Notes under the pieces: model-generated
What the model was told of the DNA's origin: nothing
Database searches by the model: none
What the model saw: only the letters and a program-made list of their open reading frames with translations
Position numbers and translations under genes: made by a program
In this document: piece after piece, positions 1 to 61,572 of the stretch
Layout: each line of letters opens with the position of its first letter
Numbering within the stretch: position 1 is the first letter of the stretch
Assembly (NCBI GenBank): GCA_964472315.1
Contig: CAYYJS010000007.1
Span: forward strand, 14,299 to 78,298
DNA: 64,000 bases
Origin: an uncultured Victivallales bacterium
GTDB taxonomy: Bacteria > Verrucomicrobiota > Kiritimatiellia > UBA8416
Direction: 5' to 3'

Positions 1-520
1 ATCCCTGCTGTTGGACGCGATCATGGCTGTGCTGGAGGGGAGCGCAAAGGGCGGTGCGTCCGGACTGGTGGAAATGACGCCCCCCGCCCTTCAAGGAAGG
101 GTCCGGCCTTCCGCGCGGATTCTCCTGGTGGAGGACAACGCCGTGAACCGCATGGTGGCTCTCAAGCAACTGCTCAAGCTGGGCTACACCCGTACAGACG
201 CCGCCTGCAACGGACGCGAAGCCGTCGAAGCATTGGCGACGAAAGAGTATGACATCATCCTGATGGACTGTCAGATGCCCGAAATGGACGGCTTTGAAGC
301 CACGGGGCGCATTCGGGACCAGGAACGGCAGCGGGGGGTGGCGGGCCGCAGGACGCCCATCGTGGCCATGACGGCCAATGCCCTGGAAGGCGATCGGGAA
401 AAATGCGTCGAAGCAGGCATGGACGATTACATTTCGAAACCAGTCCGGGTCGAGCTCCTGAAGAAAGTGTTGGAGCAGTGGGGCCCGGGGGGAACTGTCC
501 GGGAAGGAAGCGTGGCGTGA
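1..520 (+). CDS. C-terminal CheY-like receiver (REC) domain of a hybrid sensor kinase / response regulator; 5' end truncated by window
   Basis: ORF 11..520 translation has the receiver signature: [13 protein letters not shown]...[14 protein letters not shown]...MTANA. Frame is open to the window start. Confidence 0.7.
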
Positions 521-573
521 CCGCGTTGAAGCCTGAAGAACTGGAGGATCGCGCCCGGCAAGGGTTTGGCGGG

Positions 574-903
574 ATGGTTCCCGACCTGGCCGAACGGTGC
601 CGCGAATTCGCCGTGGATGCCTCCGAAGTGGAGGATGAGATGATGTCGATTTTCAAGCCCCATATTGGCGGAGTGATCGCCGCGATCGCGGTGGCGGCGG
701 CGAACCGGAGCGAACCGGAGATCCGACGGAGCGCCCACTCCCTGCGCGGGATGGGCGGGACGATCGGGGTCCCCACGTTGTCGGTGGTCGCGGCGGAACT
801 GAGCGAGGCCGCCAAGCGGGGCGATTACAGCGGGTGTCTGGCGCTGGCGCGGGGGCTCCAGGAATGGGACCGCGCCTGGTCACTCGGGAGGGCCACGTCA
901 TGA
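574..903 (+). CDS. Histidine phosphotransfer (Hpt) domain protein
   Basis: HSLRGMGGTIG motif (phospho-His of Hpt) in ORF 403..903. Start moved to the internal Met at 574 downstream of the REC stop; exact start uncertain. Confidence 0.55.
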   Translation: MVPDLAERCREFAVDASEVEDEMMSIFKPHIGGVIAAIAVAAANRSEPEIRRSAHSLRGMGGTIGVPTLSVVAAELSEAAKRGDYSGCLALARGLQEWDRAWSLGRATS

Positions 904-2516
904 CCGCGACTTCCCTTGTCGCGAGCGATCGCCTGGTCGGGCGCGTTCTGGTGGTCGACGATGAGCTCCCGAACCGGGAGTACCTGCGCAAACTTCTGAC
1001 GGGGCGGGGGTGCCAGGTGACGGTGGCGGACAGCGGCGAGCAGGCGTTGCGGCTGACCTGCCAGGAAGTTCCGGACCTGATCCTTGTGGACATCATGATG
1101 CCGGGCATGACGGGGTATGACGTTTCCCGGTCCCTGCGGGCGGACCCCCGGACCCGTGACATCCCCGTGATTATGGTGACCGCCCGGGCGGACATCGAAG
1201 ATATCGAAACGGGGTTCGATGCCGGCGCCTTCGACTACATCCGCAAGCCGTTCAATCCGCGCGAGTTGATCGCCCGGGTCCACAATGCCCTGGACCTGAA
1301 GCGCAGCCATGACGCATTGATGCAGTGGAAAGAGCGAATGTCCCGCGAACTCAAAATGGCGGGATCCCTGCAACGCAAACTGCTTTCAACCACGCCCCTG
1401 TTCTCCGCGGACCTCGAAGTCCGGATGACGTACCGCCCCAGCATGGCCATCGGAGGCGACGTATTCGATGCCATCAAGCTGCCGGACGGGTCGGTGTGCG
1501 TCTATGTCGGCGACGTATCCGGACATGGGGTGGGTGCGGCGATGGTCGCCTCCCTGTTGAAAGTGATCGTCACCGAGGTTGTCTTGGGATACTGGGCGCA
1601 AGGGGTTGCCGTGGTGCATCGGACGATCGAAGAACGGTTCCGGCGCAATGTGACCAACCCCGAAATCTATGCCACGCTGTTTCTTGGCCTCTACGATGCG
1701 GGCGCACGGGTGTGGAAATGCGTCAACTGCGGGCATCCCGAACCCTTGGTCTGGGATGGAAACGCCGCTCCGAAAGTGCGTCCCCTGTCGGGGGACGGGA
1801 GTCTCCCCATCGGATTCGATGACGGGCATCTGGTCGGGGAGGAAGAACCGGCCGAGTTGACCATGCGCGCGACGCCGGGGGCGTCTCTGCTGATCTATAC
1901 GGACGGCCTCTCGGAAGCCTGTCGCGCGAGCCGAGACGATGTCTGCGGGATAGACGGGGTCATGGCGGGATTCGCCGCAGCCATGGCGACCAATGGCGAC
2001 AAGGTTTCCGAGGGACTCATGGATCGCCTCATCCAGGATGGCTACCACCTGGACAAGGATGACTGTACCGTCATGATCGTCCACTGTCTGGATCCCGCCG
2101 AGATCGTCCTCGAAACATCGATTCCCCCCACGATGGGGGCTGTGGCGAAACTGGCCGAGAACAGCGAGCATGCGCTTCTCGCATCCGGTTGGGGGGCTAC
2201 GGCCGCCGGCGCCGTACGGTTGCTTGTCATGGAGTATGGCGCCAACCTTGTCGAGCATGGCCGGAGCCCGGCATCGTCGAAGATCGCGTTTCAGCTTCGG
2301 CAGCGCGCCTCGTCCTGCAGAATCCTGTTTTCGGATAGCGGGAGGGATTGGGATATGGACGGCTGGCTGGCGCGGGAATACACGGCGAGCCCATCGGATG
2401 AGCGCGGCCGCGGTTGGGCGATCATCCGGGCCATCGCCTCCCGGATCGAGATGATCCGGCGTTACCATGAGAATATCGGGGTTTTTGAGGTTGCAAAGGA
2501 CTACCACCCCAAGTAA
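900..2516 (+). CDS. Fusion protein: receiver (REC) + PP2C/SpoIIE-type Ser phosphatase (RsbU-like) + HATPase_c anti-sigma-factor-kinase-like (RsbW-like) domain
   Basis: REC: VLVVDDE...LILVDIMMPGMTG...VIMVTARAD. PP2C: SMAIGGDVFD...VYVGDVSGHGVGAAM...YTDGLSEA. C-terminal HATPase-like: MEYGANLVEHG...GRGWAIIRAIA. ATG at 900 overlaps the Hpt stop (ATGA). Confidence 0.8.
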   Translation: MTATSLVASDRLVGRVLVVDDELPNREYLRKLLTGRGCQVTVADSGEQALRLTCQEVPDLILVDIMMPGMTGYDVSRSLRADPRTRDIPVIMVTARADIEDIETGFDAGAFDYIRKPFNPRELIARVHNALDLKRSHDALMQWKERMSRELKMAGSLQRKLLSTTPLFSADLEVRMTYRPSMAIGGDVFDAIKLPDGSVCVYVGDVSGHGVGAAMVASLLKVIVTEVVLGYWAQGVAVVHRTIEERFRRNVTNPEIYATLFLGLYDAGARVWKCVNCGHPEPLVWDGNAAPKVRPLSGDGSLPIGFDDGHLVGEEEPAELTMRATPGASLLIYTDGLSEACRASRDDVCGIDGVMAGFAAAMATNGDKVSEGLMDRLIQDGYHLDKDDCTVMIVHCLDPAEIVLETSIPPTMGAVAKLAENSEHALLASGWGATAAGAVRLLVMEYGANLVEHGRSPASSKIAFQLRQRASSCRILFSDSGRDWDMDGWLAREYTASPSDERGRGWAIIRAIASRIEMIRRYHENIGVFEVAKDYHPK

Positions 2517-2540
2517 CAATGCCGCCGGTTTTTCGCTCCC

Positions 2541-3275
2541 ATGAATGACAGCATTTACGCGGCTCGTGCGGCAATGTTCAAGGAACTGAATCTGCCGACA
2601 TCCCATTCCGGCATCCGGATGTTACGGATGCGCCACATCGTCAAGCTCGGTTTCTGGGAAGTCGGATTGAGAAGCGTCTATGCCGTGAAGCGGGTCATGG
2701 ACCTGGCCATCGGGGCGATGGCGCTGATCATGCTGGTGCCGCTGTTCCTGGCGGTGGGGCTGGCGATCGTTCTGGAAGACGGGTTCCCCATCTTTTTCGC
2801 CCAGGACCGTGTCGGGCTGAATGGCCGGGTGTTCCGCTTCTACAAGTTCCGCTCCATGTTCCGCAATGCCGAACAGCTCAAGGACGCGCTCATGAAGCAG
2901 AACGAGTCCGGGGACGGGGTCATTTTCAAAATGAAGAACGACCCCAGGATCACCAGGGTCGGGCGGTTCATCCGACGGTACAGCATCGACGAGATGCCGC
3001 AGTTTCTCAACGTGTTGCTGGGCGACCTCTCGATTGTCGGGCCGCGTCCTCCGGTCCCCAGGGAAGTGGCCCAATACACACTCGACGATCGCAAACGGTT
3101 GCACATCAAACCGGGTCTGACCTGCCTATGGCAGATTCAGGGCCGATCCGAGATTCCGTTCAAGGAACAAGTGCGGCTCGATTTGCAGTACATCCACAGC
3201 CAGAGTGTGATAAAGGATCTGGCGATCATGGTGAAGACCGTGCCCGCCGTGTTGCTGGGCCGGGGGGCGTTTTGA
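2541..3275 (+). CDS. Polyprenyl-phosphate sugar phosphotransferase (bacterial sugar transferase, WbaP/WcaJ C-terminal-type)
   Basis: Single TM followed by the Bac_transf signature: VFRFYKFRSM...DPRITRVGRFIRRYSIDEMPQFLNVLLGDLSIVGPRP. Confidence 0.85.
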   Translation: MNDSIYAARAAMFKELNLPTSHSGIRMLRMRHIVKLGFWEVGLRSVYAVKRVMDLAIGAMALIMLVPLFLAVGLAIVLEDGFPIFFAQDRVGLNGRVFRFYKFRSMFRNAEQLKDALMKQNESGDGVIFKMKNDPRITRVGRFIRRYSIDEMPQFLNVLLGDLSIVGPRPPVPREVAQYTLDDRKRLHIKPGLTCLWQIQGRSEIPFKEQVRLDLQYIHSQSVIKDLAIMVKTVPAVLLGRGAF

Positions 3276-3291
3276 AAGCGGAGGCAATGCA

Positions 3292-3630
3292 ATGAATGTC
3301 AAGTTTGAAGAACGCGGGGCCATCGGGGTGGTGATGCCGCAGGGGGCCATAACGGCCGAAACCACCGATTCGTTCCGGGATCTGTTTGTGGACTGGTTCC
3401 GGCGTGCGGACGGCGTGAAGAATGTGGTCCTTGATCTTTCGCAGGTGGATTTCATGGACAGTTCCGGTCTGGGCACCATCATTGCGTTGCTCAGGCGGGT
3501 TACGGAGCGGGGAGGGGATATGAAGATTGTCGGCCCGAAGAGGGTCCGGATGATTTTCGAGATTACCCGTGCGTACAAGGTTTTCGACATCGTCGATTCC
3601 GTGGACGAAGCCATTGCAATATGCGAGTGA
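3292..3630 (+). CDS. STAS-domain anti-sigma-factor antagonist (SpoIIAA/RsbV-like)
   Basis: 112 aa; DLSQVDFMDSSGLGTIIAL motif with the phosphorylatable Ser in the canonical position. Confidence 0.85.
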   Translation: MNVKFEERGAIGVVMPQGAITAETTDSFRDLFVDWFRRADGVKNVVLDLSQVDFMDSSGLGTIIALLRRVTERGGDMKIVGPKRVRMIFEITRAYKVFDIVDSVDEAIAICE

Positions 3631-4078
3631 AAGCGGTTCTTCACACGGGTTTGGTCGAGTCCTGGGCGACCGTGCTGGGTGATATTCCCTGGCCGCTCCT
3701 GCCCGTCGGGAATCGCCCTTTTATCGAGTATTGGTTCGAAGAGTGCATCCGTCACGGTATCAAGGACATCCGACTCGTCCTGGGAGAAGGCGCCCATGCC
3801 TGGGGCGCATCCTGCCGGACGAAGAGTTGAAACAGCTCGGCGTCTATTTCGAGGATCGCATGTACGGCGATCTGGTCTTCCTGATGAATACGGCCATTCA
3901 GATTGTGCCGAGTTTCATGGGAAACAAGCGGGTGGCGGGGTTGCATGGCTTCCATCCGAAGGATGCGGATTCGTATGCGATGCTGCTAAGCAACCGTCCG
4001 ATCCCGGAGTCGGTCACCCGTATCCATCGCATCCACGACCTGATGGTGCGCGACTTGCCCGAACTCACTTGGCCGTAG
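3627..4078 (+). pseudogene. Gene remnants: N-terminal ~65 aa of a nucleotidyltransferase (frame 0) followed, after a frame change, by a C-terminal ~80 aa fragment resembling the nucleotide pyrophosphatase/phosphodiesterase (AP-superfamily) family
   Basis: VKAVLHTGL...PLLPVGNRPFIEY...DIRLVLG matches the NTP_transferase N-terminus but stops at 3830. The overlapping frame carries GLHGFHPKDADSYAMLLSNRP (G-HG(Y/F)...M...GP motif), the same C-terminal signature seen in the AP-superfamily protein at 27695. Neither piece is full length. Confidence 0.3.
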
Positions 4079-10298: not shown

Positions 10299-11696
10299 GT
10301 GCGAAGTCTTCTCATAGCGGCATTTGCGGCATGCCTGGGCTCGCTGACCGGTGGTTGCGCCTGTCTGCTCACGTATGACACGCATTACCCGCTGGCGGAG
10401 CAGAATCTGGCGCAGGGCGGCTACGAGGCGGCCGCGGCGCAGATCCGTCAGAACAAGGAACTCTACACCGCCAAGAACGCGGTCCTGTACTACCTCGATG
10501 CGGGGATGCTCGAGCACTATGCCGGAAACTTCGACGCCAGCAACGTGATGCTGACCGAAGCCGAGCGCGGCATCGAGGACGGCTATACCAAGAGCGCGAG
10601 TCGCGGGGCGGCGGGATTGCTGCTGAACGACAACACGTTCGCCTACGCGGGCGAAGACTACGAGAACGCGTACGTCAATGTCTTCAAGGCCCTGAACTAC
10701 CTTGGCAAGGGCGAGCCCGAGAGCGCTTTCGTGGAAGTCCGCCGGGTCAACAACAAGTTGTCCATGCTGGGGGACCGGTACGCGGCGCAGACGCAGGCTT
10801 TCAATGCGGAGATGAAGGAGTACGGGCAGGCGCGGCGGACGCCCCGGAACTACTTCCAGGAATGCGCGCTGGGGCGGTTTCTCAGTCTGGTGCTGTACCG
10901 GCACGATGGCAAGCTGGACGATGCCCGCATCGATCTCGACCATTTGCGTCGGGCATGGAAGGTGCAGCCCGGAATGTACGATTTCGCCGAACCGCGGTTG
11001 CCCGGCTGTCTGTCGCCGTTAACCGCGGATCAGGCCCGGCTCACCGTCGTCAGTTTTACGGGGCGCGCGCCGATCAAGGAAGCCGAGACGCTGCATGCGT
11101 TCTCGCTCACGAACCAGGTCGTCATCAGCATCCAACCGCCGGAGAGCATGACGGCGGACCGGGCGGCGGTCGTGTTGCCGTGGAAGGATATGAAGCCCGG
11201 GTACCATTTCAAGTGCACGATCCCGAGGCTCATCGCGCGCGGCTCGGCCGTGACGCATGTCCGTGTGATTGTCGACGACAAGCTGGCGTTCTCGCTCGAG
11301 TGCATCGAGTCGCTGGAGAACGCCGCCCGGGAAACGTTCCGTATCCGGCAACCGATGATCCTGTTGCGGACCGGCATCCGTGTGCTCATGAAGGGGGTGG
11401 CGGTGCATCAGGCGCGACAGGAGATCAAGAAGGAGGCGAAGGACGACGCAATGGGTGACTTCCTCGCTTTTCTGGCGATGGAGGCGGTCATGGCGACCGA
11501 AATCGCCGATTGCCGGATTTCGCGCTTTTTCCCGGCACGGGCCTACGTGGGCGAGGTCGACGTGACGCCGGGGACGCACGCCGTCCGCGTGGAGTATCTG
11601 GGCGCGGACAAGCAGGTGTTGTACACGCATGATCTGGGTGCCGTGGAAGCGCGCGGTGGAAGCCTGAATGTCAAGGAGTCGGTATGTATACAATGA
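10299..11696 (+). CDS. Large lipoprotein, unknown function (middle gene of the three-lipoprotein cluster)
   Basis: Signal peptide with lipobox LTGGC; 465 aa; no recognised catalytic motifs. Confidence 0.55.
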   Translation: MRSLLIAAFAACLGSLTGGCACLLTYDTHYPLAEQNLAQGGYEAAAAQIRQNKELYTAKNAVLYYLDAGMLEHYAGNFDASNVMLTEAERGIEDGYTKSASRGAAGLLLNDNTFAYAGEDYENAYVNVFKALNYLGKGEPESAFVEVRRVNNKLSMLGDRYAAQTQAFNAEMKEYGQARRTPRNYFQECALGRFLSLVLYRHDGKLDDARIDLDHLRRAWKVQPGMYDFAEPRLPGCLSPLTADQARLTVVSFTGRAPIKEAETLHAFSLTNQVVISIQPPESMTADRAAVVLPWKDMKPGYHFKCTIPRLIARGSAVTHVRVIVDDKLAFSLECIESLENAARETFRIRQPMILLRTGIRVLMKGVAVHQARQEIKKEAKDDAMGDFLAFLAMEAVMATEIADCRISRFFPARAYVGEVDVTPGTHAVRVEYLGADKQVLYTHDLGAVEARGGSLNVKESVCIQ

Positions 11697-12790: not shown

Positions 12791-13459
12791 CTATCGCGTG
12801 GCGAGTTCCTCTTCGGTGTCGGCGTGGTCGGTCCGTACCGAGGCGTGGATGTGGGCACCGCCGCGGGCGGGCGACTCGTGGTAGACCCAGTCGAATCCCG
12901 CGGCCCAGCACAGCTTGGCGAGTTCCTCCAGGCCCAACTCGTCGCAGGTGACATCGATGGCTCGTCCCTCCTTGTGCAGGGACCGCGAGTTGTGGATCTT
13001 GGTTGGACGATACGCATCGTGAACTTCGAGCGTGCCGTTCCGTGTGGCGACGAGCGCGATCAGGCGCCGCAGGGGGAGATCCAGGGCGCGGTGCACCGAA
13101 TGGTCGCATTCGTCGTCGCCGGTATCGTGGTCGCTTTCCCACCAGACGCGCGAATCGTCGACATACACGAGGTCGCGACCGGGCGAGAACCGTTCGGGGT
13201 CGACGCTGCCCGAGACATCCATCTCGCGGCGTGTGGGGAGGTGCGTGTTGCGCGGAAACGCGGCGGGTATGTCGCGTACGGCCGTCAGCGGTTGTGTCGC
13301 CGTCGGGGGCGATACCGACTCCACGGGCGCGATGTCCTGTGCCCGCGAGTGCCGGCGTTCCACCCGATGCAGCAGCATGCCGACGACCGTCGCGCACAGC
13401 AGAATCCCGCCGGCGATCGCCATGACCGCGAGCCTGCCCATGGTCGTGAGTCCACGCAT
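12791..13459 (-). CDS. Membrane-anchored zinc hydrolase with Hedgehog N-terminal ('Hedge')/LAS-peptidase-like domain
   Basis: N-terminal TM (LAVMAIAGGILLCATVVGMLL). C-terminal SLHKEGRAIDVTCDE...AAGFDWVYHESPARGGAHIHASV aligns with Shh-N SLHYEGRAVDITTSD...EAGFDWVYYESKAHIHCSV, including the His/Asp/His zinc ligands. Confidence 0.6.
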   Translation of the reverse strand: MRGLTTMGRLAVMAIAGGILLCATVVGMLLHRVERRHSRAQDIAPVESVSPPTATQPLTAVRDIPAAFPRNTHLPTRREMDVSGSVDPERFSPGRDLVYVDDSRVWWESDHDTGDDECDHSVHRALDLPLRRLIALVATRNGTLEVHDAYRPTKIHNSRSLHKEGRAIDVTCDELGLEELAKLCWAAGFDWVYHESPARGGAHIHASVRTDHADTEEELATR

Positions 13460-18410: not shown

Positions 18411-19589
18411 TCAGCGGGGTTCGGCGATGCAGTAGAGGTGCTGCATGCCGCGGATATACAGCCGGTCGCCGTCGAACACCGGGCTGGCGCGCGTCCGTTC
18501 GAGCGTGTTCTCGGCCACGACGGTGGGGGTGTCCGTGGCGGTCACGACGAGTGTAATGCCGTTGTCGGAGCAGAGGTAGAGCAACCCGCCCGCGGCCGCG
18601 GGCGAGGCGTAACACTGGCCGTTGCGGGCGTTCATGACCGCGAACGTCGTCTCCGTCACGCATGTGCCGTCGGCTGGCTGGAGGACGGTCAACGTGCCGC
18701 TCTGACGCAGCGCGAACAGGCGTCCGTTGCAGAGGATGGGCGAGGCATAGTAGCGGCCCTGCTTGACCGGCGTCTGCCACCGTTTCTCCGGCGCGGCGTC
18801 GGCGTTCAGCGTCCACGCCGACGCATGCTGGTCGTCCACGCCGGCGACATAGGCGACGCCGTCGAGCACCACGGGCGCGTTGTAGTTGAGCGTGCCCAGG
18901 CCGCTGCCGACCGTGCGTCCGTCGGCGACGGCGAGAAGCAACCCCGACGCCGTGAGGACGGCGGCCGTATCGCCGAGGCGCACGGCGACCGTGGAGCCGT
19001 GTCGCGACGGCGACGTGACGGTCCACACCGGTTCGCCGGTTTCGGCGTTCAGGCCGGAGACGTCGCCATGGGCGACGACCAGAATGTCTCCGCTCAGAAG
19101 CGGTGAACTGCAATGGCCCCATGCGGAACCGCCGAGGGGCAGCGTCCGGCTCCAGAGTCGGCCGCCGTCACGGTCGTGCGCGGCGACGATGCCGGTGCCG
19201 CAAAACGTGTAGACCCTGCCATCCGCGCCGACGGCGGGTGTCGCGGTGGTGCCGCCCGTCTCGCTGTGTCCGCCGGACTTGCCGCCTGGCGTGGCCACGG
19301 TCCAGAGGATCGTGCCGGTCGCCCGGTCCAGGCAGAGCAGGCGGTCCGGTTCGGCCGTTACGAAGATCCGGTCGCCCCTCAGCGCGGGCGACCCGTTGCT
19401 CCAGGATGGCATGGGCGTCTTCCAAACCACATTGCTTGTGGGGGACCAGTGTCGCGGCGGGTGGGATGCATCGAAGGTGCCCGATCCGTCGCGCCGCCAG
19501 CCGAATGCGGACTCGTCGCGCCCGTTCGCCGTCGTGGCCGCCAGCCATCCCAGAATGGTCACCATGCCCAATTGCCTTGCGGTCATCAT
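18411..19589 (-). CDS. Secreted PQQ-like beta-propeller repeat protein (BamB-like fold)
   Basis: Signal peptide; repeated G-x-L/V-x-A-x-D-x-x-T-G-x-x-x-W blocks (e.g. LDRATGTILWTV, LNAETGEPVWTV). Confidence 0.7.
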   Translation of the reverse strand: MMTARQLGMVTILGWLAATTANGRDESAFGWRRDGSGTFDASHPPRHWSPTSNVVWKTPMPSWSNGSPALRGDRIFVTAEPDRLLCLDRATGTILWTVATPGGKSGGHSETGGTTATPAVGADGRVYTFCGTGIVAAHDRDGGRLWSRTLPLGGSAWGHCSSPLLSGDILVVAHGDVSGLNAETGEPVWTVTSPSRHGSTVAVRLGDTAAVLTASGLLLAVADGRTVGSGLGTLNYNAPVVLDGVAYVAGVDDQHASAWTLNADAAPEKRWQTPVKQGRYYASPILCNGRLFALRQSGTLTVLQPADGTCVTETTFAVMNARNGQCYASPAAAGGLLYLCSDNGITLVVTATDTPTVVAENTLERTRASPVFDGDRLYIRGMQHLYCIAEPR

Positions 19590-19763
19590 CGTCCATGCCT
19601 CCCGAGGTTGTGTTCGGCGCCCGGCACGACCGATCGCCGGTCGAACTCTAGCGCCGCCATGGTCTTTCGGGCGAGCTCATTCAATGTCTTTTCAGAAGTG
19701 GCGACTTTGGCTATTATGCCCGTCCGAGAATACCAGAAGAATCAGTGTCGGAAAGGATCAGGC

Positions 19764-20714
19764 ATGACAAATGGCGCAGGCGGCCGGGAGTTGCATATCC
19801 CGTCGGGGTCGACGCTGGATGGCGAGGCATACAGGCAGTTTCTCAGGGACGCTGTGCGGTTGCTGGGAAGGTGCCCGCAATACTTGGCGTCGGGCGAGGA
19901 CATCCACGTGCTGGAACTGGCGCATCTGGTTCCGCCGGTACCCGAAACCATACTGGCCATCTACGTCGGGATCAACGATGCCGTCTGCAACAAGGGCCTG
20001 GTGACGCCGTTTCTCCCGCGGCACGGGCACAACAACGTCTTCGTGTTCGACCCCGGGGTGTATGCGGGCGGGGATGACGTGCCCGACGGTACGGTGGACG
20101 CGAAGCGACTGCTGGCGGGATTCGAGCCGCCGAACGCATCGTGGTCGGATGCCTGGACCTACGTGATGATCGCGGATCCGGCGCGCTCCTTCGCGAGTCT
20201 GTGGGCCGAACGCGGCTACATCGACATGGTGCCCGCCAAATTCGAGGACTTCACGATGCTGTCCGATCCCGCCGTAAGCAAGGTGTGCACGTTCGTCGAT
20301 GAAGCCGCGTTCGAGCACCCCGTCAACCGCGCGCGTCCCTATTTGAAGGCCGCGCGCGAGCGCGGCCGGCGGTGCGCCGGCGAATTCGCGATCCCCGAAG
20401 GGCTGACCGGCGAGGTGGATGGGCTTGTGCCGGTGGTGTTGCACCGCGGCGAGAAGCTGTACGTCGCGCGGCCCGACTTCGGGCCCTGTCAGCATGCGTG
20501 GTCGAATCTGCACCCGGACAACCGCGAGGCGGCGGTTGTGAACGAGAACTCGGCCGTGCCGCTCGACCTGGTGGTGGCGAAGCCGCCCGTGTCGGCGGCG
20601 CATGCGAAGAGTCTGGTGCCGCCCAAGGGCAGCGCCGACATGACCACGGACTGGTTCCTGCGCGGGCTGCAGGTGCACCGCTTGCCGCTGTTGCGCGGGG
20701 CGGTCAAAGGGTAG
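19764..20714 (+). CDS. Hypothetical protein, first gene of a four-gene sugar-metabolism operon
   Basis: ATG with AAGGA upstream; 316 aa; no recognised motif. Confidence 0.5.
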   Translation: MTNGAGGRELHIPSGSTLDGEAYRQFLRDAVRLLGRCPQYLASGEDIHVLELAHLVPPVPETILAIYVGINDAVCNKGLVTPFLPRHGHNNVFVFDPGVYAGGDDVPDGTVDAKRLLAGFEPPNASWSDAWTYVMIADPARSFASLWAERGYIDMVPAKFEDFTMLSDPAVSKVCTFVDEAAFEHPVNRARPYLKAARERGRRCAGEFAIPEGLTGEVDGLVPVVLHRGEKLYVARPDFGPCQHAWSNLHPDNREAAVVNENSAVPLDLVVAKPPVSAAHAKSLVPPKGSADMTTDWFLRGLQVHRLPLLRGAVKG

Positions 20715-33912: not shown

Positions 33913-34053
33913 ATAATAGAGTTGACGTCCCGTGATGGGCCTGCCACACTTTTCGGATGCTTAGACCGGGCAGCCGTGTCAGGCACATGACGCGGCGCCG
34001 ACGGGCGGGCGCCCGGAGCTGTACGGATATTGACCCGGAACCGGAGGAAGGAC

Positions 34054-36216
34054 ATGGCCAAGCCGATCGACCTCATTGCGGCAAAACGGAGAGAGGCCGT
34101 CATACGCCTCTTCGAGCAGAAGTTCCAAGCGCACACGCGCATCACGGTGGGGTCCGCCACGTGCGAGAACGCGGCGGGCGCTTCGGAAGTCCATGCGCGG
34201 TTGCAGGCGCTGATGGATGAGCACTGCCCTCAGGGCGTCGTGGTCAGCCGTGTCGGGTGCGCGGGCAAGTGCGATATGGAGCCGGTCGTGACGGTGATTT
34301 CGCGCGGTACGATTCCGACCAAGTACGTGAACATGACGCCCCGGCGGGTGGAGCAGGTTTTCCGGGACCATATTCTGGGCGGCAAACCGGTGGAAGCCAT
34401 GTCGATGCGTTACAAGGCCGGGATCACGCATGCCGAACGCGTGGTCAGCGTCTGCGAGTGTGAGGTCTGCCTGAAGAATGGCGGCAAGCAGGTCGAGGAA
34501 GCGTTCCAGGCCGCCATCGAAGAGGCGGGACTGTCCGACCGCGTGGTGGTCATGCACTCGGCCTCGCAAGGGTTGGACGATATCGGGCCTGTGGCGCTCG
34601 TCTATCCGGACGACGTCATGTACCAGGAGATGACGCCGGATAGGGCTCGTGAGGTCGTGAAGAACCATTTCGTCGGCGGACAGCCCGTGGCGGAGTACGC
34701 CTGGTCGGGGGATCGTCTGACCAACCGATTTCTTCCGGTCTTCGGCGATGTTCCCTTTTTCGGCAAGCAGCTTCGCCTGACGCTTCGCAACTGCGGCGTG
34801 ATCGATCCGGAGAACCTGGACGAGTACTTGGCGGTGCGCGGTTATGAGGCCGCGGCGCGTGTGCTGACCGACGGTCAGGCGCAGGCCGTGATCGAGGCCG
34901 TCAAAGCGTCCGGCCTCCGCGGTCGCGGCGGCGGCGGGTTCTCCACGGGCACGAAGTGGGCCTTCGCGGCTCAGCAGCAGTCCGACGAGAAGTTCATCAT
35001 CTGCAACGCCGACGAGGGCGACCCCGGCGCGTTCATGGATCGCAGCACGATCGAAGGCGATCCCCACACCATTTTGGAGGGGATGATCATCGGGGGGTAC
35101 GCGATAGGCGCGACCCGCGGTTTCATCTACATCCGTGCGGAGTATCCGCTGGCGATCGTCCGTCTGGAGAAGGCCATCGCCGCCGCGCGTGCGGCGGGCA
35201 TCCTCGGCAAGCGCGTGATGGGTTCGGACTACGACTTCGATATCGAAGTGCGGCTGGGCGCCGGCGCATTTGTCTGCGGCGAGGAGACGGCGCTGATTCA
35301 CTCCATCGAAGGCAAGCGGGGCATGCCGCGTCCGCGTCCGCCGTATCCATCCGTCGAGGGGCTGTGGGGCAAGCCGACCGTCATCAACAACGTTGAAACG
35401 TTCGCGAACATCCCCGTGGTCATCCTGGATGGCGCCGAGTGGTTCAAGTCGCTCGGGACGAAGACCAGCGCGGGCACGAAGGTGTTTGCGCTTGCCGGCG
35501 ATGTGAACAACACGGGGTTGATCGAAGTGCCGATGGGCACGACCCTGCGCGATGTCGTCTACGGGGTCGGCGGCGGGATCAAAGGCGGGCGGGCGTTCAA
35601 GGCGGTTCAGACGGGCGGTCCGGCCGGCGGATGCCTGCCGGCCTCCGCGCTCGATACGCCGATCGATTACGACACGCTGGCGCGCGCGGGCAGCATCATG
35701 GGCAGCGGCGGCATGATCGTCATGGACGACGGCGCGTGCATGGTCAACGTCGCCAAGTTCTTCCTGGATTTCACGCAGAGCGAATCATGCGGCAAGTGCA
35801 CGCCCTGCCGCGAGGGCACGAAGCGCATGCTCGAGATCCTGACGCGCATCACGGCCGGCGAAGGGCGGGAGGACGATATCGACAAACTGCTGCGGCTTGC
35901 CGATACCGTCAAGAAGACGTCGTTGTGCGGGCTTGGCCAGGCGGCGCCGAATCCGGTGATCAGCACGATCACGCATTTCCGCGGCGAGTACGAAGCGCAT
36001 ATACGGGACAAGCACTGTCCGAGCGGCGTGTGCAAGGCACTGGCGAGTTTCGAGATCGATGCCGGGAAGTGCATCGGTTGCGGCGCTTGTCGCAAGGCCT
36101 GCCCGGTGCATTGCATCGCGGGTGAGACACGGAAGGTGCACGTCATCGACCAGTCCCGCTGCGTGAAGTGCGGGAGTTGTTATGAGGTCTGCAAGTTCGA
36201 TGCGGTAAAGAGGTGA
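34054..36216 (+). CDS. hydB: [FeFe]-hydrogenase NuoF-like flavoprotein subunit (HydB/HndC-like) with two N-terminal thioredoxin-like [2Fe-2S] domains and C-terminal 2x[4Fe-4S]
   Basis: RBS GGAGGAAGG; NADH/FMN-binding GLRGRGGGGFSTGTKW, SLCGLGQ (N3 cluster); CIGCGACRKACP and CVKCGSCYEVC ferredoxin motifs. Confidence 0.85.
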   Translation: MAKPIDLIAAKRREAVIRLFEQKFQAHTRITVGSATCENAAGASEVHARLQALMDEHCPQGVVVSRVGCAGKCDMEPVVTVISRGTIPTKYVNMTPRRVEQVFRDHILGGKPVEAMSMRYKAGITHAERVVSVCECEVCLKNGGKQVEEAFQAAIEEAGLSDRVVVMHSASQGLDDIGPVALVYPDDVMYQEMTPDRAREVVKNHFVGGQPVAEYAWSGDRLTNRFLPVFGDVPFFGKQLRLTLRNCGVIDPENLDEYLAVRGYEAAARVLTDGQAQAVIEAVKASGLRGRGGGGFSTGTKWAFAAQQQSDEKFIICNADEGDPGAFMDRSTIEGDPHTILEGMIIGGYAIGATRGFIYIRAEYPLAIVRLEKAIAAARAAGILGKRVMGSDYDFDIEVRLGAGAFVCGEETALIHSIEGKRGMPRPRPPYPSVEGLWGKPTVINNVETFANIPVVILDGAEWFKSLGTKTSAGTKVFALAGDVNNTGLIEVPMGTTLRDVVYGVGGGIKGGRAFKAVQTGGPAGGCLPASALDTPIDYDTLARAGSIMGSGGMIVMDDGACMVNVAKFFLDFTQSESCGKCTPCREGTKRMLEILTRITAGEGREDDIDKLLRLADTVKKTSLCGLGQAAPNPVISTITHFRGEYEAHIRDKHCPSGVCKALASFEIDAGKCIGCGACRKACPVHCIAGETRKVHVIDQSRCVKCGSCYEVCKFDAVKR

Positions 36217-36227
36217 GAGAACAACCG

Positions 36228-37985
36228 ATGAGCACAGAGGTTAAACTGACGATTGACGGAATTCCGACCGCGGCCGAGCCCGGCACGACGGTCATGCAGG
36301 CCGCGGACGACATTGGCATCCGGATTCCGCGGCTCTGTTACCACCCGAGTCTAAGCGTGCTCGGCGCCTGCCGAATCTGCATAGTCGAGGTCGAGGGGCA
36401 GCGGAACCCGGTGGCCTCGTGCGCCTTCCCGGTTGCCGAGGGCATGAAGGTGCGCACGTCGTCGCCGCTGCTGAGGCGATTGCGGCGCGACATTGTGGAA
36501 CTGCTGTTGGACAACCATCCGAAGGAATGCACGACGTGCGAGCGCTGCGGAAGCTGCGAACTGCAGGACCTGGCCCACAGCCTGGGCGTGCGCGAGCGGT
36601 TGTACGAGGGCGAGCGCAAACGCTTCGAGCGCGACTGCAGTTCGCAGGCCGTCATTCGCGATCCCGAGAAGTGCATCCTCTGCGGCCGGTGCGTGCGCGT
36701 GTGCGAGGAAGTACAGGGCGTGACCAATCTCAGCCAGCAGTACCGGGGATTCCTCAACTTCGTGGCGCCGGCGCACAACGACAAGATGGTCGATTCGGTT
36801 TGTATCCAGTGCGGGCAGTGCATCAACGTATGTCCGACCGCCGCCTTCGTGGAGCACAACAGCACGGATGTGGTGTTGGAAGCGCTGGCCAACCCGAACC
36901 TGCACGTCGTCGTGCAGACGGCGCCGTCCATTCGTGCCGCGCTGGGCGAAGGCTTCGGTTATCCGCCGGGAACGGCCGTCACCGGTAAGATGGTGACCGC
37001 CTCGCGCCTGATGGGGTTCGACAAGGTTTTCGATACGAACTTCAGCGCCGACCTGACGATCGTCGAAGAAGCGACGGAATTCCTCTCCCGCATGAAGGCT
37101 GGCGAGCGGCTTCCCCTGATCACCTCCTGCTCGCCGGGGTGGGTCAACTTCCTCGAGCATTTCTACCCCGAGTTGATCCCGTACGCGTCAAGCTGCAAGT
37201 CGCCGATGAGCATGCTTTCGACTTTGCTCAAGACATACTACGCCGACATCGCCGGGATCGATCCGAAGAATATCTTCGTTGTGGCGGTGATGCCCTGTAC
37301 GGCCAAGAAGTATGAGTGCGGGCGTCCGGAACATGTGGCGCCGTGGGGCAAGCCGTATACCGACGCGGTGTTGACGACGCGTGAGTACATCTGGCTGGCC
37401 AAGTGCCTCGGGGTCGACTTCGTGAATCTGCCGGACGGCGAGTTCGACAGTCCCCTGGGCGAGTCTTCAGGCGCCGGCGACATCTTTGGCGCGACCGGTG
37501 GCGTCATGGAAGCCGCCCTGCGGACCGCCTACGAGAAGGTTACGGGGAAGATATGCCCCGACCTGGACTTCGTGGCCGTCCGCGGCGTCGAAGGTCTCAA
37601 GGAGGCGGAGATCGACATCGACGGGACGATCGTTCGTGTCGCCGTGTCCAACGGACTGAACAACGCGAAGACGTTGCTGGATGCGGTGATTCAAGGTGAG
37701 CGGCAGTACCATCTGATCGAGATCATGGCGTGCCCTGGCGGATGTGTCGCCGGCGGCGGACAGCCGTATCCGCCGGACGGGATGTATGTTCTGGATCCCG
37801 AACTGACCCGGAAACGCGCGCAGGCGCTCTACGCCATCGACGCCGGCAAGAAACTGCGCAAGTCCCACGAGAATCCATCGATCATACGGCTCTACGAGAA
37901 GTTTCTGGGCGAACCGAACGGTCACAAGTCCCACGAGCTTCTGCATACATCCTATAACGCCAAGGAACCACGAGGGATACGATGA
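36228..37985 (+). CDS. hydA: [FeFe]-hydrogenase catalytic subunit (HydA/HndD-like) with N-terminal [2Fe-2S] and [4Fe-4S] domains; atypical L1 motif TSCSPGW
   Basis: RBS AAGAGGTG. H-cluster motifs L2 MPCTAKKYE and L3 EIMACPGGCVAGGGQP are present; L1 reads ITSCSPGW (canonical TSCCPxW). Confidence 0.85.
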   Translation: MSTEVKLTIDGIPTAAEPGTTVMQAADDIGIRIPRLCYHPSLSVLGACRICIVEVEGQRNPVASCAFPVAEGMKVRTSSPLLRRLRRDIVELLLDNHPKECTTCERCGSCELQDLAHSLGVRERLYEGERKRFERDCSSQAVIRDPEKCILCGRCVRVCEEVQGVTNLSQQYRGFLNFVAPAHNDKMVDSVCIQCGQCINVCPTAAFVEHNSTDVVLEALANPNLHVVVQTAPSIRAALGEGFGYPPGTAVTGKMVTASRLMGFDKVFDTNFSADLTIVEEATEFLSRMKAGERLPLITSCSPGWVNFLEHFYPELIPYASSCKSPMSMLSTLLKTYYADIAGIDPKNIFVVAVMPCTAKKYECGRPEHVAPWGKPYTDAVLTTREYIWLAKCLGVDFVNLPDGEFDSPLGESSGAGDIFGATGGVMEAALRTAYEKVTGKICPDLDFVAVRGVEGLKEAEIDIDGTIVRVAVSNGLNNAKTLLDAVIQGERQYHLIEIMACPGGCVAGGGQPYPPDGMYVLDPELTRKRAQALYAIDAGKKLRKSHENPSIIRLYEKFLGEPNGHKSHELLHTSYNAKEPRGIR

Positions 37986-38473
37986 GCACCAGCACTGACG
38001 GACTGAGCGCCGGGATTGTCGACTATATCAAGGCATGCCGGGAGAAGGAGCACCCCGAGAGCTATCTTATCCCCGTGCTCCAGAAAGTGCAGAGCGAGCA
38101 GGGCTTTCTGTCGAAGACCGGCATGAACCAGGTGGCGCAGCTCATGCAGGTGCCGACCGCGATGGTTACCGGGGTGGCCACGTTCTATCACTTCTTCACG
38201 TTCAAGCCGCGCGGAGAGAAACGCGTGACGGTGTGCATGGGGACGGCGTGCTTTGTCCGCGGTGCGGACAAGGTGCTCGACCGGGTCAAGGAACTGCTGG
38301 GGATCGGCGAGGGCGAGACCACGAGCGACGGCCGGTTTTCCATCGACTGCGCGCGTTGCATTGGCGCGTGCGCGCTGGCGCCGGTCGTGCTGGTAAACGA
38401 TAAGGTGTATGGCAACGTGACCACCGCGCAGGTCGAGAATATCCTCGCGGATCACGGTTTCGTTGTCGCGTGA
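37982..38473 (+). CDS. hydC: NuoE-like thioredoxin-fold [2Fe-2S] subunit of the hydrogenase (HydC/HndA-like)
   Basis: CMGTAC...CARCIGACALAPV motif (Cx4C...Cx3C); ATG overlaps the hydA stop (ATGA). Confidence 0.8.
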   Translation: MSTSTDGLSAGIVDYIKACREKEHPESYLIPVLQKVQSEQGFLSKTGMNQVAQLMQVPTAMVTGVATFYHFFTFKPRGEKRVTVCMGTACFVRGADKVLDRVKELLGIGEGETTSDGRFSIDCARCIGACALAPVVLVNDKVYGNVTTAQVENILADHGFVVA

Positions 38474-38565
38474 GGAGCGGCGTTGGCATGCCCGATTGCC
38501 GGTTGCGCAACGCGCCCGGCATGCAGGCCCGCGAACGGGCGACCAAACAAGAGAGGCTGATGGCA

Positions 38566-38949
38566 ATGAGCAAGAAGGTTCTGTTGATCGACGATGACGT
38601 GGACCTGGTGGCTGCCAACACCGCGGTGCTGGAAGCCGAAGGCTATACGGTTGTAAGCGCGAACGACGGCGCGGCCGGCATCGACATGGCCAAGGCCGAG
38701 AAGCCCGACCTGGTCATTCTGGATGTGATGATGGCGCACGATACCGAAGGGTTCGAGGTGAGCCGCAAGATGCGTGATTTGCCCGAGCTCCGGAAGACGC
38801 CCATCATCCTGCTGACCGGCATCAAACAGGCGATGAGCCTGCCGTTTCGCTTCGAACCCGATCAGGATTGGCTGCCGGTCAAGGTCATTCTGGAGAAGCC
38901 CGTTCAGCCCGCCCGGTTGATCGCGGAGGTAAGCAAGTACCTGGCGTAG
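38566..38949 (+). CDS. Stand-alone CheY-like response regulator receiver protein
   Basis: RBS GAGAGG; KVLLIDDDVD...DLVILDVMM...ILLTG receiver motifs; last gene of the [FeFe]-hydrogenase operon. Confidence 0.7.
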   Translation: MSKKVLLIDDDVDLVAANTAVLEAEGYTVVSANDGAAGIDMAKAEKPDLVILDVMMAHDTEGFEVSRKMRDLPELRKTPIILLTGIKQAMSLPFRFEPDQDWLPVKVILEKPVQPARLIAEVSKYLA

Positions 38950-38965
38950 GCATGCCTACACCAGG
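38940..38965. terminator. 26-nt near-perfect palindrome (CCTGGCGTAGGCA|TGCCTACACCAGG) between convergent REC gene and hypB: candidate bidirectional terminator
   Basis: Inverted repeat with one mismatch, centred between two converging stop codons 6 nt apart; no U-tract. Confidence 0.4.
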
Positions 38966-39744
38966 CTTTGCAGGTAGGCGAGCCAGGCGGCCATGCCATC
39001 GCCGGTACGGGCGCTCAGTTCCAGGACAAAAACGCCCGGCCGGACGGTGCGCAGGTTTTCGCGACAGCGGGACAGGCTCCAATCCAGGTGCGGGATCAGG
39101 TCGGTCTTGGTCAGAAGCACCACCGGCGCCTGCGCGAACAGCGACGGGTACTTGGCCGGCTTGTCCTCGCCTTCGGTCACCGACAGCAGGGCGATCTTGA
39201 AATCCTCGCCCAGGTCGAAGGCCGCGGGACAGACGAGGTTGCCGACGTTCTCGATGAACAGGATGCGCGTGTCGTCCGCAACCGCCCCCGGGAGCGCCTC
39301 GGCGACGCGGTCGGCGTCGAGATGGCAGGCGTTGTTCGTTTCGATCTGCGTTACGGGCGCGCCCTTGCCGCGCAAGCGCCGCGCATCGTTATCGGTCTTC
39401 TGGTCGCCCGTGATCACCGCGCACGGAAGCTTGCCCCGCAGTGCCGTCAAGGTCTTCTCCAGCAGGTAGGTCTTGCCGGATCCGGGCGATGAGATCATGT
39501 TGATCGCCACGATGCCGCGCGCCTTGAGCCACGCGCGGTTCCGCCGCGCGACCTCGTCATTGTGGCTGAGGATCCGTTGCTCGAGCCGGATGACTCGACC
39601 GGATTCGTCGTGTTCGTGCGCATCGCCGCCGACGGCATCGTGCGTATGGCTGTGGGCCGGGCGGCCGTCGCCGTGGTGGTGCCCGTGTCCCCCGGTATGC
39701 GCGTGCGTGTGGTGAGGATCGTCGCATCCGCAATTTTTACACAT
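38956..39744 (-). CDS. hypB: Hydrogenase nickel-incorporation GTPase HypB with His-rich N-terminus
   Basis: RBS AAGGAGAC; MCKNCGCDD...HHTHAHTGGHGHHHG His-rich metal-binding stretch; P-loop GSPGSGKT. Confidence 0.85.
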   Translation of the reverse strand: MCKNCGCDDPHHTHAHTGGHGHHHGDGRPAHSHTHDAVGGDAHEHDESGRVIRLEQRILSHNDEVARRNRAWLKARGIVAINMISSPGSGKTYLLEKTLTALRGKLPCAVITGDQKTDNDARRLRGKGAPVTQIETNNACHLDADRVAEALPGAVADDTRILFIENVGNLVCPAAFDLGEDFKIALLSVTEGEDKPAKYPSLFAQAPVVLLTKTDLIPHLDWSLSRCRENLRTVRPGVFVLELSARTGDGMAAWLAYLQSLV

Positions 39745-40117
39745 TCGAGTCGTCTCCTTGCTTGTCGCCACCCGGCGCATCGACCTCGACGGCCGTCAGC
39801 AGCAGATCCTGTCCGCCCGTCAGCCGCACGTCGCACGAACCGCAGGCTTCGCACACGTAGATCGGGAAATCCGGCGTGGCGTCGATGCCGCATGCATGGC
39901 AGTGCAGGTGTGCCGGCACGGCCGTGATATCGAGGGCCGCCCCGCCGACGCTCGTGCCCTCCGCCGCGAAAGGAAAGGCCATCCGCAGGGCTTCCGGATC
40001 GACGCCGCTGAGGGCGCCGACCGAGACGTGTACGGCGCTGACGCGCGACGATCCCGCGTCTTTCGCGACCGCCGTCACCTGGTCGACCAGCGCCTGCGCT
40101 ATCGATAGTTCATGCAT
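39737..40117 (-). CDS. hypA: Hydrogenase nickel-incorporation protein HypA
   Basis: Starts MHELSIA; zinc ribbon CHACG...CEACGS; overlaps the hypB start by 8 nt. Confidence 0.8.
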   Translation of the reverse strand: MHELSIAQALVDQVTAVAKDAGSSRVSAVHVSVGALSGVDPEALRMAFPFAAEGTSVGGAALDITAVPAHLHCHACGIDATPDFPIYVCEACGSCDVRLTGGQDLLLTAVEVDAPGGDKQGDDSNV

Positions 40118-40119
40118 GG

Positions 40120-41139
40120 TCAGCAAATCCTCGGCAACAGTTCCCCGCGCGGCACATCGATCAGGCGGCGGCCGCCGGTCAGCGTGGTCATCGACACCCG
40201 GCCCGCCACATCGGTCACCCGGCCGATCGCGGCGGCGCGTCCGCCGTTCTCCATACCGCGCCAGCGGCGCACAATCTCATCCGAGACGTCGGGACCGCAA
40301 ACGAGCGCCAGGCGCCCTTCGCTGGCGACCTGCAGCGGATCGAGTCCGAGCATCTCGCTGACGCCGCGTACGCCCGCCGAGAGCGGTATCGCCGTTTCGT
40401 CGAGCTCGATGCCGACCGGTCGTCCGTCGACGAGCTCGTTCAACACCGCGGCGAGCCCGCCGCGCGTGGGGTCCCGCATGAAGCGGATCTCGCCCGCGAG
40501 ATCGGCCACCGCCAGGACAAGCTCGTGCACGGGCGCGCTATCGCTCAGGGGTCCGTTGGCGATATGGATGTCTTCGCGGGCCGCGAGCACGGCAAGCCCG
40601 TGTTCGGCGATCGTGCCGTTGATGAGCACGTGGTCGTCGGGCTTCAGCAGGTTGGCGCCGAGCCTGAATGCGGGTAGCAGTTCGCCGATACCGGCCGTGT
40701 TGACAAAGATGCCGTCGGCCTGTCCGCGCGCGACGACCTTCGTATCGCCCGTGACGATCTCGACGCCGCAGCGCTCGGCGGCGGCCTTTACGGCGTCTAG
40801 CACCCGCCGCAAGGCGGCCATCGGGAACCCCTCCTCCAGAATCAGGGATAGCGAGAGCCACCGCGGACGGCCGCCGGCGACGGCGATATCGTTGACCGTC
40901 CCGTGTACGGCGAGATCCCCGATGTTGCCGCCGGGGAACTCGTAAGGCGTTACGACGAAACTGTCCGTCGTGAAAACCAGGCCCCGACTGGGCAATGCCA
41001 GCGTCGCCGCGTCCGGCAAGCCCTGCAGCGCCTTGGCGCTGAAGCGCGACACGATTTCCGCATCGATGAAAGCGCGGGTCAGCCGTCCGCCGCCGCCATG
41101 CGCCAGTTGAATCGTCTCGTCCACGTCATCGCCTCGCAA
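40120..41139 (-). CDS. hypE: Hydrogenase maturation carbamoyl dehydratase HypE
   Basis: AIR-synthase-like fold; C-terminal PRIC motif typical of HypE. Confidence 0.85.
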   Translation of the reverse strand: MRGDDVDETIQLAHGGGGRLTRAFIDAEIVSRFSAKALQGLPDAATLALPSRGLVFTTDSFVVTPYEFPGGNIGDLAVHGTVNDIAVAGGRPRWLSLSLILEEGFPMAALRRVLDAVKAAAERCGVEIVTGDTKVVARGQADGIFVNTAGIGELLPAFRLGANLLKPDDHVLINGTIAEHGLAVLAAREDIHIANGPLSDSAPVHELVLAVADLAGEIRFMRDPTRGGLAAVLNELVDGRPVGIELDETAIPLSAGVRGVSEMLGLDPLQVASEGRLALVCGPDVSDEIVRRWRGMENGGRAAAIGRVTDVAGRVSMTTLTGGRRLIDVPRGELLPRIC

Positions 41140-41165
41140 ATCGCTTCATCCAACGCAACTTCTTA

Positions 41166-43412: not shown

Positions 43413-43516
43413 CGCCCGGGCCAGGCGATAGACCGACGGACGGAAGCCGACGCCCTGGACGGTGCCGGTCAGACTGTACGTGCGGCGGACAAGCAGCGTC
43501 GGTTGGGGTGCGGGCG

Positions 43517-43969
43517 TCAGCTTTGCACCTCCTTCAGCGCGACGGCGACATAGTCGGCGAACCGTGCTGCCACGGCCGCGGAAAGGCCGTCGCCCATGGT
43601 CATCGAAGCGGGCTGGATGGCCACGATGCGGATTGGCGGCACCGGCTGCCCGATCTGGCGCGCAAGCTGAACCAGCTTGAGCACGTCGCCCTCGTGCGTC
43701 GATATGGTCCCGACGACCTTGCGGGAGTCGACGTCCTCGGGGCCGAAGGCGATCCAGTCCCCCGGCTGCCCGCCGAAGTCGGCGGCATCGACGATGACGA
43801 CGCCGTCGGTCTCCGGCTCGAAATACGTCAGCACCTGCATGCCGTTGTTGCCGATCTCGACGGCCTCGAAACCGTCGTCAAGGTGGTTGTCGGCGATATG
43901 CTCGACGATGCGGAGCCCGATACCGTCATCGCCCATGGCGTAGTTACCGAGACCGAGCAGGTAGCGCAT
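43517..43969 (-). CDS. Hydrogenase maturation endopeptidase (HycI/HoxW/HybD family)
   Basis: MRYLLGLGNYAMGDDGIGLRIVE N-terminus and internal His-containing motif typical of [NiFe]-hydrogenase C-terminal proteases. Confidence 0.75.
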   Translation of the reverse strand: MRYLLGLGNYAMGDDGIGLRIVEHIADNHLDDGFEAVEIGNNGMQVLTYFEPETDGVVIVDAADFGGQPGDWIAFGPEDVDSRKVVGTISTHEGDVLKLVQLARQIGQPVPPIRIVAIQPASMTMGDGLSAAVAARFADYVAVALKEVQS

Positions 43970-44051
43970 GTCCTGGTCCTTGATCGGGCGCGAAAAGAGG
44001 CGGGGCGCCGGCGTTTGCCGGCGCCCCGCAAGGGCTGGCTCTTCGCGCCGG

Positions 44052-46980: not shown

Positions 46981-46982
46981 GC

Positions 46983-48005: not shown

Positions 48006-48025
48006 GCCATATCCTTTCATGTGCT

Positions 48026-58062: not shown

Positions 58063-58120
58063 GAAAAGCGAGTCTCACCGGCGATTCTAGGCATATTGTC
58101 GTCATATTGCTTCCTTGTTT

Positions 58121-61571: not shown

Positions 61572-61572
61572 A

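Follow-up and report, generated by a model that had tools for sequence, protein, structure and literature searches.

What does a phosphorelay-fed partner switch control when a sugar transferase gene lies between its regulator and its STAS antagonist? This question is raised by the left end of a 64,000-nucleotide stretch of DNA from an uncultured Victivallales bacterium (contig CAYYJS010000007.1 of assembly GCA_964472315.1; the whole stretch is called the window here), where a hybrid histidine kinase, an Hpt protein, a fused receiver (REC)–PP2C–RsbW-like regulator, a phosphoglycosyl transferase (PGT) and a single-domain STAS protein are encoded one after another. An earlier note on this DNA had suggested that a phospho-signal gates a glycosylation step directly, or that the STAS protein acts on a target other than a sigma factor, and this proved to be the best-supported reading: the PGT is conserved in the cassette, STAS–PGT fusions occur in cyanobacteria and no sigma-factor gene is nearby. 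From the conserved synteny and the domain fusions, we infer that direct, sigma-independent control of exopolysaccharide (EPS) priming is the most likely output. In our working view, which we hold with slightly more belief than doubt, a phosphorelay and partner switch of the HptB–HsbR–HsbA type has been recruited to an EPS pathway, and the output of its STAS protein is the priming enzyme rather than a sigma factor.

The five genes occupy the first 3,630 nucleotides of the window, all on the plus strand and with the domains that the earlier note had assigned to them, according to Pfam and the open reading frame (ORF) listing (Table 1). The catalytic and phospho-acceptor residues of the five proteins are all intact. 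The genes are tightly packed: the kinase stop most likely overlaps the GTG start of the Hpt gene in a GTGA (517-520), and the Hpt stop overlaps the regulator ATG in an ATGA (900-903), the latter as previously described. The gaps that had been given as 25 and 17 nt measure 24 nt between regulator and PGT and 16 nt between PGT and STAS. A sixth co-directional ORF begins in a GTGA overlap with the STAS stop. A promoter and terminator scan of positions 1-5400 gave signals no higher than the shuffled expectation, and no plus-strand terminator was found there. For the part beyond the window edge, we used three contigs (L001-L003) that encode an identical regulator protein and come from three separately assembled sequencing runs.

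Table 1 Features of the regulatory cassette at the left end of the window.
Feature	Position	Strand	Basis
Hybrid histidine kinase, C-terminal REC, cut by window edge	2..520	+	Pfam Response_reg, E 4.6e-27
Hpt protein, 128 aa	517..903	+	Pfam PF01627, E 9e-8; start per gene call in L001
HsbR/CrsR-type regulator, 538 aa	900..2516	+	Pfam Response_reg, SpoIIE and HATPase_c_2
Small monotopic PGT (Bac_transf), 244 aa	2541..3275	+	Pfam PF02397, E 2e-64
Single-domain STAS protein, 112 aa	3292..3630	+	Pfam STAS, E 4.7e-20
Stump of a gene for a nucleotidyltransferase-like/left-handed beta-helix/probable pseudo-PGT protein of about 470 aa	3627..3830	+	tblastn and DNA alignment

Evidence that these genes belong together comes from other genomes. 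We scanned one genome per species, found relatives at 467 of the 480 matched stretches and mapped 80 loci by tblastn. The order regulator, PGT, STAS and a gene for a protein of about 470 amino acids recurs in 62 of these 80 species-level genomes, from Kiritimatiellia and allies; this is the outcome of the gene-neighbourhood comparison that had been proposed, and it puts the arrangement far from chance. Among the other loci, six have the regulator followed by STAS and then unrelated genes, three have neither PGT nor STAS downstream in that order, one has the PGT without STAS, and eight could not be scored owing to contig ends or a partial match. The Hpt gene stands upstream of the regulator in 75 of the 80. 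The full series, with a PGT of 244 and a STAS protein of 113 amino acids, is seen around regulator homologs of 66, 69, 50 and 47 % identity. In the 57 loci where all three intergenic distances could be measured, none exceeded 68 nt, and in 17 of them STAS and the next gene overlap by 4 nt. What sets the system apart is that a PGT gene, as a conserved cassette member, separates the regulator from STAS. We found no published description of a regulator–PGT–STAS–pseudo-PGT cassette in the searchable literature.

The cassette also occurs in another phylum and keeps particular company. In Desulfonatronum parangueonense (L088) a kinase, the regulator, a 244-residue PGT, STAS and the pseudo-PGT are followed by glycosyltransferases, and the full cassette from regulator to pseudo-PGT (5894-10440) in this genus of Desulfobacterota suggests transfer between phyla as a unit. 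An EPS cluster of Kiritimatiellaeota strain B1221, which also encodes a flippase, Poly_export and a WecG–STAS protein, contains the triad of PGT, STAS and pseudo-PGT but not the regulator. Cassettes of relatives sit in Wzy, Wza and Wzz clusters, with EPS genes downstream; in several, the flanking genes encode Wzy_C, Poly_export, Wzz and a WecG–STAS–STAS fusion enzyme. WecG/TagA-family glycosyltransferases with one or two C-terminal STAS domains adjoin the cassette on the minus strand in L004 (12182-13615), L005 (12232-13701) and L089 (1601-3046). The second STAS domain of the two-STAS proteins (L004 and L005) carries a FIDSSALG or FVDSGALG motif. The kinase/phosphatase may have the WecG–STAS proteins as a second substrate.

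STAS and PGT domains are also found on one chain elsewhere. In Anabaena, All4160 combines STAS and Bac_transf; RsbW-type kinases phosphorylate its S74 in vitro, and the S74A variant, which cannot be phosphorylated, compensates for the loss of HenR, a REC–SpoIIE phosphatase. Its authors concluded in 2026 that an EPS enzyme is here under the direct control of a partner-switching-like module (PMC13555669). In the sulfated-EPS cluster of the Synechocystis plasmid pSYSM, a 317-residue 'sugar transferase', which we took to be XssP, is likewise a fusion of STAS (residues 9-99) and Bac_transf (124-310), with 44 % identity between the Bac_transf part and the PGT of the window (E 2e-54). The HenR/Alr3423/All4160 system of Anabaena PCC 7120, together with XssP, thus resembles the window cassette in its REC–SpoIIE phosphatase, RsbW-type kinase, STAS serine and homologous PGT domain, and its output is a sigma-independent one on an EPS priming enzyme (PMC13555669). 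The layout differs. In cyanobacteria STAS and PGT form one polypeptide and the kinase and phosphatase are separate, unlinked genes, whereas the window cassette splits STAS and PGT between two neighbouring genes, joins kinase and phosphatase on one chain and gathers the entire relay in one operon, to which relatives add the pseudo-PGT. No STAS fusion was present among the top 120 homologs of the window PGT.

The PGT is the most conserved member of the cassette, with a mean identity to the window protein of 64 %, against 52 % for STAS, 45 % for the regulator, 40 % for the 470-residue protein and 31 % for Hpt; its closest orthologs are 84-86 % identical, and 64 of 66 orthologs are exactly 244 residues long. 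Its Bac_transf domain is near complete (positions 1-178 of 179), and it is predicted to initiate a polyprenyl-phosphate-linked glycan by sugar-1-phosphate transfer. The catalytic dyad D150-E151 and G167-P168-R169 of the GPRP motif (167-170) are invariant, with P170 in at least 90 % of sequences. Structural matches in the Protein Data Bank include WbaP (8t53, E 1.5e-43) and PglC (8g1n). The best NCBIfam matches (EPS_sugtrans, EpsZ and WbaP) all fall below their cut-offs because these models describe long forms. A hydrophobic stretch at about residues 51-79 with an invariant P67, a candidate for the re-entrant helix of this enzyme family, is modelled by AlphaFold2 as one straight helix, at moderate confidence. 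In front of it, residues 1-44 (window 2541..2672) form a conserved cytoplasmic N-terminal extension, absent from PglC-type enzymes, with invariant R9, L16, P19, R31, W39 and E40. Since the STAS domain of the fusions occupies the place of this extension, the extension is a plausible docking site for the STAS protein.

The STAS protein itself gives an NCBIfam match to anti-sigma factor antagonist. Its motif D56-S57-S58-G59-L60-G61 contains the predicted phosphorylatable Ser57 (codon 3460-3462), which aligns with the serine replaced by alanine in SpoIIAA chain 1tid_B. D56, S57, G59, L60 and G61 are kept in at least 98 % of 73 orthologs, so the phosphorylatable residue that had been expected of a partner-switch antagonist is conserved.

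The domain search suggested earlier for the regulator matched Response_reg (residues 16-127, E 2e-32), SpoIIE (PP2C; 195-395, E 1.3e-28) and, for the RsbW-like GHKL module, HATPase_c_2 (410-520, E 1.5e-11, profile positions 3-116 of 127). In an alignment of 20 homologs of 43-71 % identity, the receiver residues D20, D21, D64, T94 and K116 are invariant, as are the PP2C motifs GGD185-187, D205, GHG208-210, TDG334-336 and DD387-388 and, in the GHKL module, the N box (E445/N449), the G1 box (D479xG481) and the G2 box (R504-G505). The AlphaFold2 model (pLDDT 84.5) was compared by Foldseek and matched the REC–PP2C protein RssB of P. aeruginosa (3eq2, E 1e-22) and the solved RsbU+RsbW tandem of Rv1364c (3ke6, E 2e-20, 382 aligned columns), and its PP2C fold matches the PP2C domains of RssB, SiaA and SpoIIE. 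The HATPase_c fold expected in the last 130 or so residues is therefore there, with its three boxes and the 3ke6 alignment. The observation that phosphatase and kinase share one chain under receiver control held up, but not its presentation as unusual, since HsbR and CrsR have been published with the same architecture. The regulator belongs to a known type: with this shared architecture and 2,360 significant homologs among 8,000 scored candidates, the fusion in itself is unremarkable. Almost all of the best 120 homologs have the identical three-domain Pfam set, and they come mainly from Kiritimatiellia, 'Lentisphaerae' and 'Verrucomicrobiota' metagenome-assembled genomes.

Upstream of the regulator, the proposed phosphorelay of hybrid kinase, Hpt and receiver is supported by domains, catalytic motifs and natural Hpt fusions. 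On contigs L001-L003, the full kinase has 711 amino acids (HisKA-HATPase_c-REC) and is preceded by a gene for an 817-residue GAF/PAS protein. The Hpt phospho-acceptor His74, in a motif of the HS[IL]KG type, is invariant in 79 orthologs. One relative encodes an Hpt–kinase fusion of 1038 residues (L006:4888-8004), and Hpt–REC–PP2C–HATPase fusions occur among homologs of about 680 residues (P0016, P0029, P0033 and others). With Hpt fused to the kinase in one case and to the regulator in the others, the relay order is independently supported. The kinase with its receiver, Hpt His74 and regulator Asp64 are predicted to form a His-Asp-His-Asp relay.

Several described systems share parts of this design. 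In Pseudomonas aeruginosa and P. putida, the HptB–HsbR–HsbA system (PA3345-3347) passes signals from hybrid kinases through Hpt to a REC–PP2C–kinase/anti-sigma protein whose single-domain STAS substrate is encoded next to it, and governs the choice between biofilm and motile lifestyle (PMC6482189, PMC5085249). Both systems have an Hpt-fed three-domain regulator with STAS nearby, a likeness in architecture and gene context. Unlike the hsb operon, the window cassette has a PGT between regulator and STAS, so that STAS lies one gene further downstream, and relatives add the pseudo-PGT; moreover, the cassette belongs to EPS clusters of Kiritimatiellota, where FlgM, HsbD and RpoS are not in evidence. 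CrsR–CrsA of Shewanella oneidensis, compared by architecture, again pairs a three-domain regulator with a STAS antagonist (PMC6482189), but CrsR sequesters RpoS and has no glycosyltransferase link.

Rv1364c of Mycobacterium tuberculosis resembles the regulator in that a single chain combines an RsbU-type phosphatase with a kinase of the RsbW type. It has a PAS sensor in place of the receiver and a STAS domain of its own, and we know of no phosphorelay or PGT associated with it. The SypE–SypA pair of the Vibrio fischeri syp locus comprises a response regulator with RsbW-like kinase and PP2C domains and, under its control, a single-domain STAS protein from an EPS locus. SypE has the domain order kinase–REC–PP2C, whereas the regulator here runs REC–PP2C–kinase. 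The PGT gene of the syp locus is sypR, and the STAS gene is not known to lie next to it. For SypA, a 2024 review gives the point of action as 'at an unknown level', and a role as anti-sigma antagonist is considered unlikely (PMC11112999).

The gene that follows STAS in relatives deserves separate attention, as the window retains only its beginning. In one relative (L004:10758-12176, plus strand) and in orthologs at about 60 loci, it stands directly after STAS. The N-terminus of the protein of about 470 residues is weakly nucleotidyltransferase-like, without the Gly-rich loop, and is followed by a left-handed beta-helix, a hydrophobic helix and a degenerate Bac_transf-like C-terminus. Of 60 orthologs, 59 retain the Asp of the catalytic dyad and none the Glu, which is replaced by Arg in 44 and by Leu in 13. 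The protein is probably a pseudo-PGT, that is, a pseudo-enzyme. A word-indexed search returned only 90 significant proteins of this family, from Kiritimatiellota and Desulfonatronum.

When four orthologs were compared with the window by tblastn, nothing beyond residues 1 to about 58 found a match (3627 to about 3800). DNA alignment with L004, L008 and L009 places the end of the homology at about 3797-3800, and the stump consists of some 58 codons followed by 11 unrelated codons and a stop. The ORF at 3731/3860..4078 is the last 85 or so residues of a type I phosphodiesterase-family protein of about 385 residues; it is no duplicate of the Phosphodiest gene that the window also contains, to which it is unrelated, and represents the C-terminal remnant of a different gene of that family. 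A deletion has joined two gene stumps, removing the third cassette gene and whatever lay between. An assembly artefact is unlikely, because three separately assembled runs agree on this junction. The genes that follow in the window (GT2, CinA-like, TatD and PAS kinase) were next to the cassette in none of 84 related loci, which places the region to the right of about 3800 outside the conserved unit. Genes for Wzx, Wzy, Wza and Wzz were found nowhere in the 64-kb window. The cassette of this genome is thus a reduced version, in which regulator, PGT and STAS are intact.

How might such a system work? A signal would be received by the GAF/PAS protein and the hybrid kinase and flow to Hpt His74 and then to regulator Asp64; the parts are seen, and the flow is our reconstruction. 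By analogy with HsbR, phosphorylation of the receiver would shift the regulator from kinase towards phosphatase activity, and this balance would decide whether STAS Ser57 is phosphorylated. If the STAS protein behaves like All4160, its unphosphorylated form would bind and activate the 244-residue membrane PGT and permit EPS priming, while phospho-STAS would be inactive or retained by the kinase domain. STAS may make contact with the N-terminal extension of the PGT and, where relatives have it, with the catalytically dead PGT-like protein whose gene comes next. The output of the switch would then not be a sigma factor, or not only one, but the EPS priming step. A more specific version, about which we are more doubtful than confident, would have the STAS protein act in trans, under the control of its phosphorylation, as a subunit of a membrane-bound priming complex composed of the PGT and the dead nucleotidyltransferase-like/beta-helix/PGT-like partner, in a switch without any sigma factor.

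Several points weigh against control of EPS priming. The STAS–PGT contact is a prediction from synteny and domain fusions, the AlphaFold2 model of the PGT (pLDDT 68.6) is too weak for its N-terminal extension to be interpreted, and the direction of regulation is borrowed by analogy from other systems. With the third gene deleted and no EPS polymerase or export genes within 64 kb, the output may be weakened in this organism. The six relatives that keep regulator and STAS without the PGT indicate that the switch can work without it, and the kinase domain of both HsbR and CrsR binds the sigma factor RpoS (PMC6482189). The last two points also favour a classical partner switch, in which a sigma factor from elsewhere in the genome is sequestered by the RsbW-like domain until dephosphorylated STAS releases it, and the PGT gene is simply co-transcribed as part of the regulon. 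The intact N, G1 and G2 boxes and the fold match to the RsbW part of Rv1364c suit this alternative as well, and a sigma partner could be encoded elsewhere in the genome. However, neither the 64-kb window nor the called genes of annotated related loci yielded a sigma-factor gene; the triad of PGT, STAS and pseudo-PGT persists without the regulator, and both cyanobacteria and relatives have STAS domains fused directly to glycosyltransferases. Co-transcription alone would also leave unexplained the fixed order, the position of the PGT between kinase and substrate, and the occurrence in two phyla. We consider a sigma-factor output unlikely, though it is the strongest of the competing explanations.

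The missing third gene gives rise to another alternative, which we regard as rather improbable: the real STAS receptor would be the downstream pseudo-PGT protein, or the WecG–STAS protein would be the real substrate of the kinase/phosphatase, and, with its downstream partner deleted, the cassette of the window would be a decaying, largely non-functional relic. Translational coupling of STAS to the 470-residue gene in 17 of 57 loci fits such a receptor, as does the dyad of the pseudo-PGT, whose retained Asp and universally lost Glu suggest a regulatory or scaffold role; the DSS/DSG motif in the second STAS domain of WecG–STAS–STAS fits such a substrate. That only 58 codons of the third gene are left and EPS export genes are not nearby agrees with decay. 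On the other hand, the window has full-length ORFs for regulator, PGT and STAS, in which neither a frameshift nor a stop was seen and all catalytic residues are kept, and the PGT remains close to its nearest orthologs at the identity given above. Finally, the output might run through a second messenger or another non-enzymatic partner, with the PGT neighbourhood reflecting a shared biofilm function. HsbA does have several partners that vary with its phosphorylation state, among them the diguanylate cyclase HsbD and FlgM (PMC6482189), yet neither GGDEF nor FlgM nor flagellar genes were seen in the cassette neighbourhoods or in the window, and we give this explanation very little credence.

Other parts of the window contain features separate from the cassette. 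For a 222-residue protein encoded at 12791..13459 (minus strand), Pfam gives the N-terminal signalling domain of Hedgehog (PF01085, E 9e-11); the protein is presumably a bacterial relative of the zinc DD-peptidase-like kind. Two hydrogenase systems lie back to back at 34030..48020. One comprises NuoF-like, [FeFe]-hydrogenase and 2Fe-2S thioredoxin-like proteins and is followed by an orphan receiver (38470..38949); the other, on the opposite strand, comprises an [NiFe] hydrogenase, FAD/NAD and Fe-S subunits and the maturation genes for HypB, HypE, HypF and HycI. A possible defence island at 54313..61643 (minus strand) encodes an AAA_14/DUF4143 ATPase, a STAND/NACHT-like NTPase, an HsdM methylase and a 599-residue DUF1016/YhcG PDDEXK nuclease fused to a type I restriction HindI-like C-terminal domain. 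Two plus-strand ORFs, 10299..11696 (465 residues) and 19113..20714 (533 residues), have a coding-like GC content at third codon positions and no Pfam match.

For the question of how single-domain STAS proteins act on polysaccharide production, a proposal that a priming enzyme is controlled directly dates only from 2026 and concerns a cyanobacterial STAS–PGT fusion, of which the cassette described here is the unfused counterpart. If the STAS protein is indeed a subunit of a priming complex, the cassette would offer a concrete target class for orphan STAS proteins of EPS loci such as SypA, and the organism of the window would represent a natural deletion of the third partner of the priming complex. 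The cassette also reveals an unstudied pseudo-enzyme partner. With sensor, relay, kinase/phosphatase, STAS and PGT in one operon, in about 60 species including the cultivable genera Pontiella and Desulfonatronum, it provides a compact system for testing the post-translational gating of the first committed step of EPS synthesis. For the phyla concerned, annotations such as 'RsbU' and 'anti-sigma antagonist' probably denote the regulation of EPS rather than the control of sigma factors.

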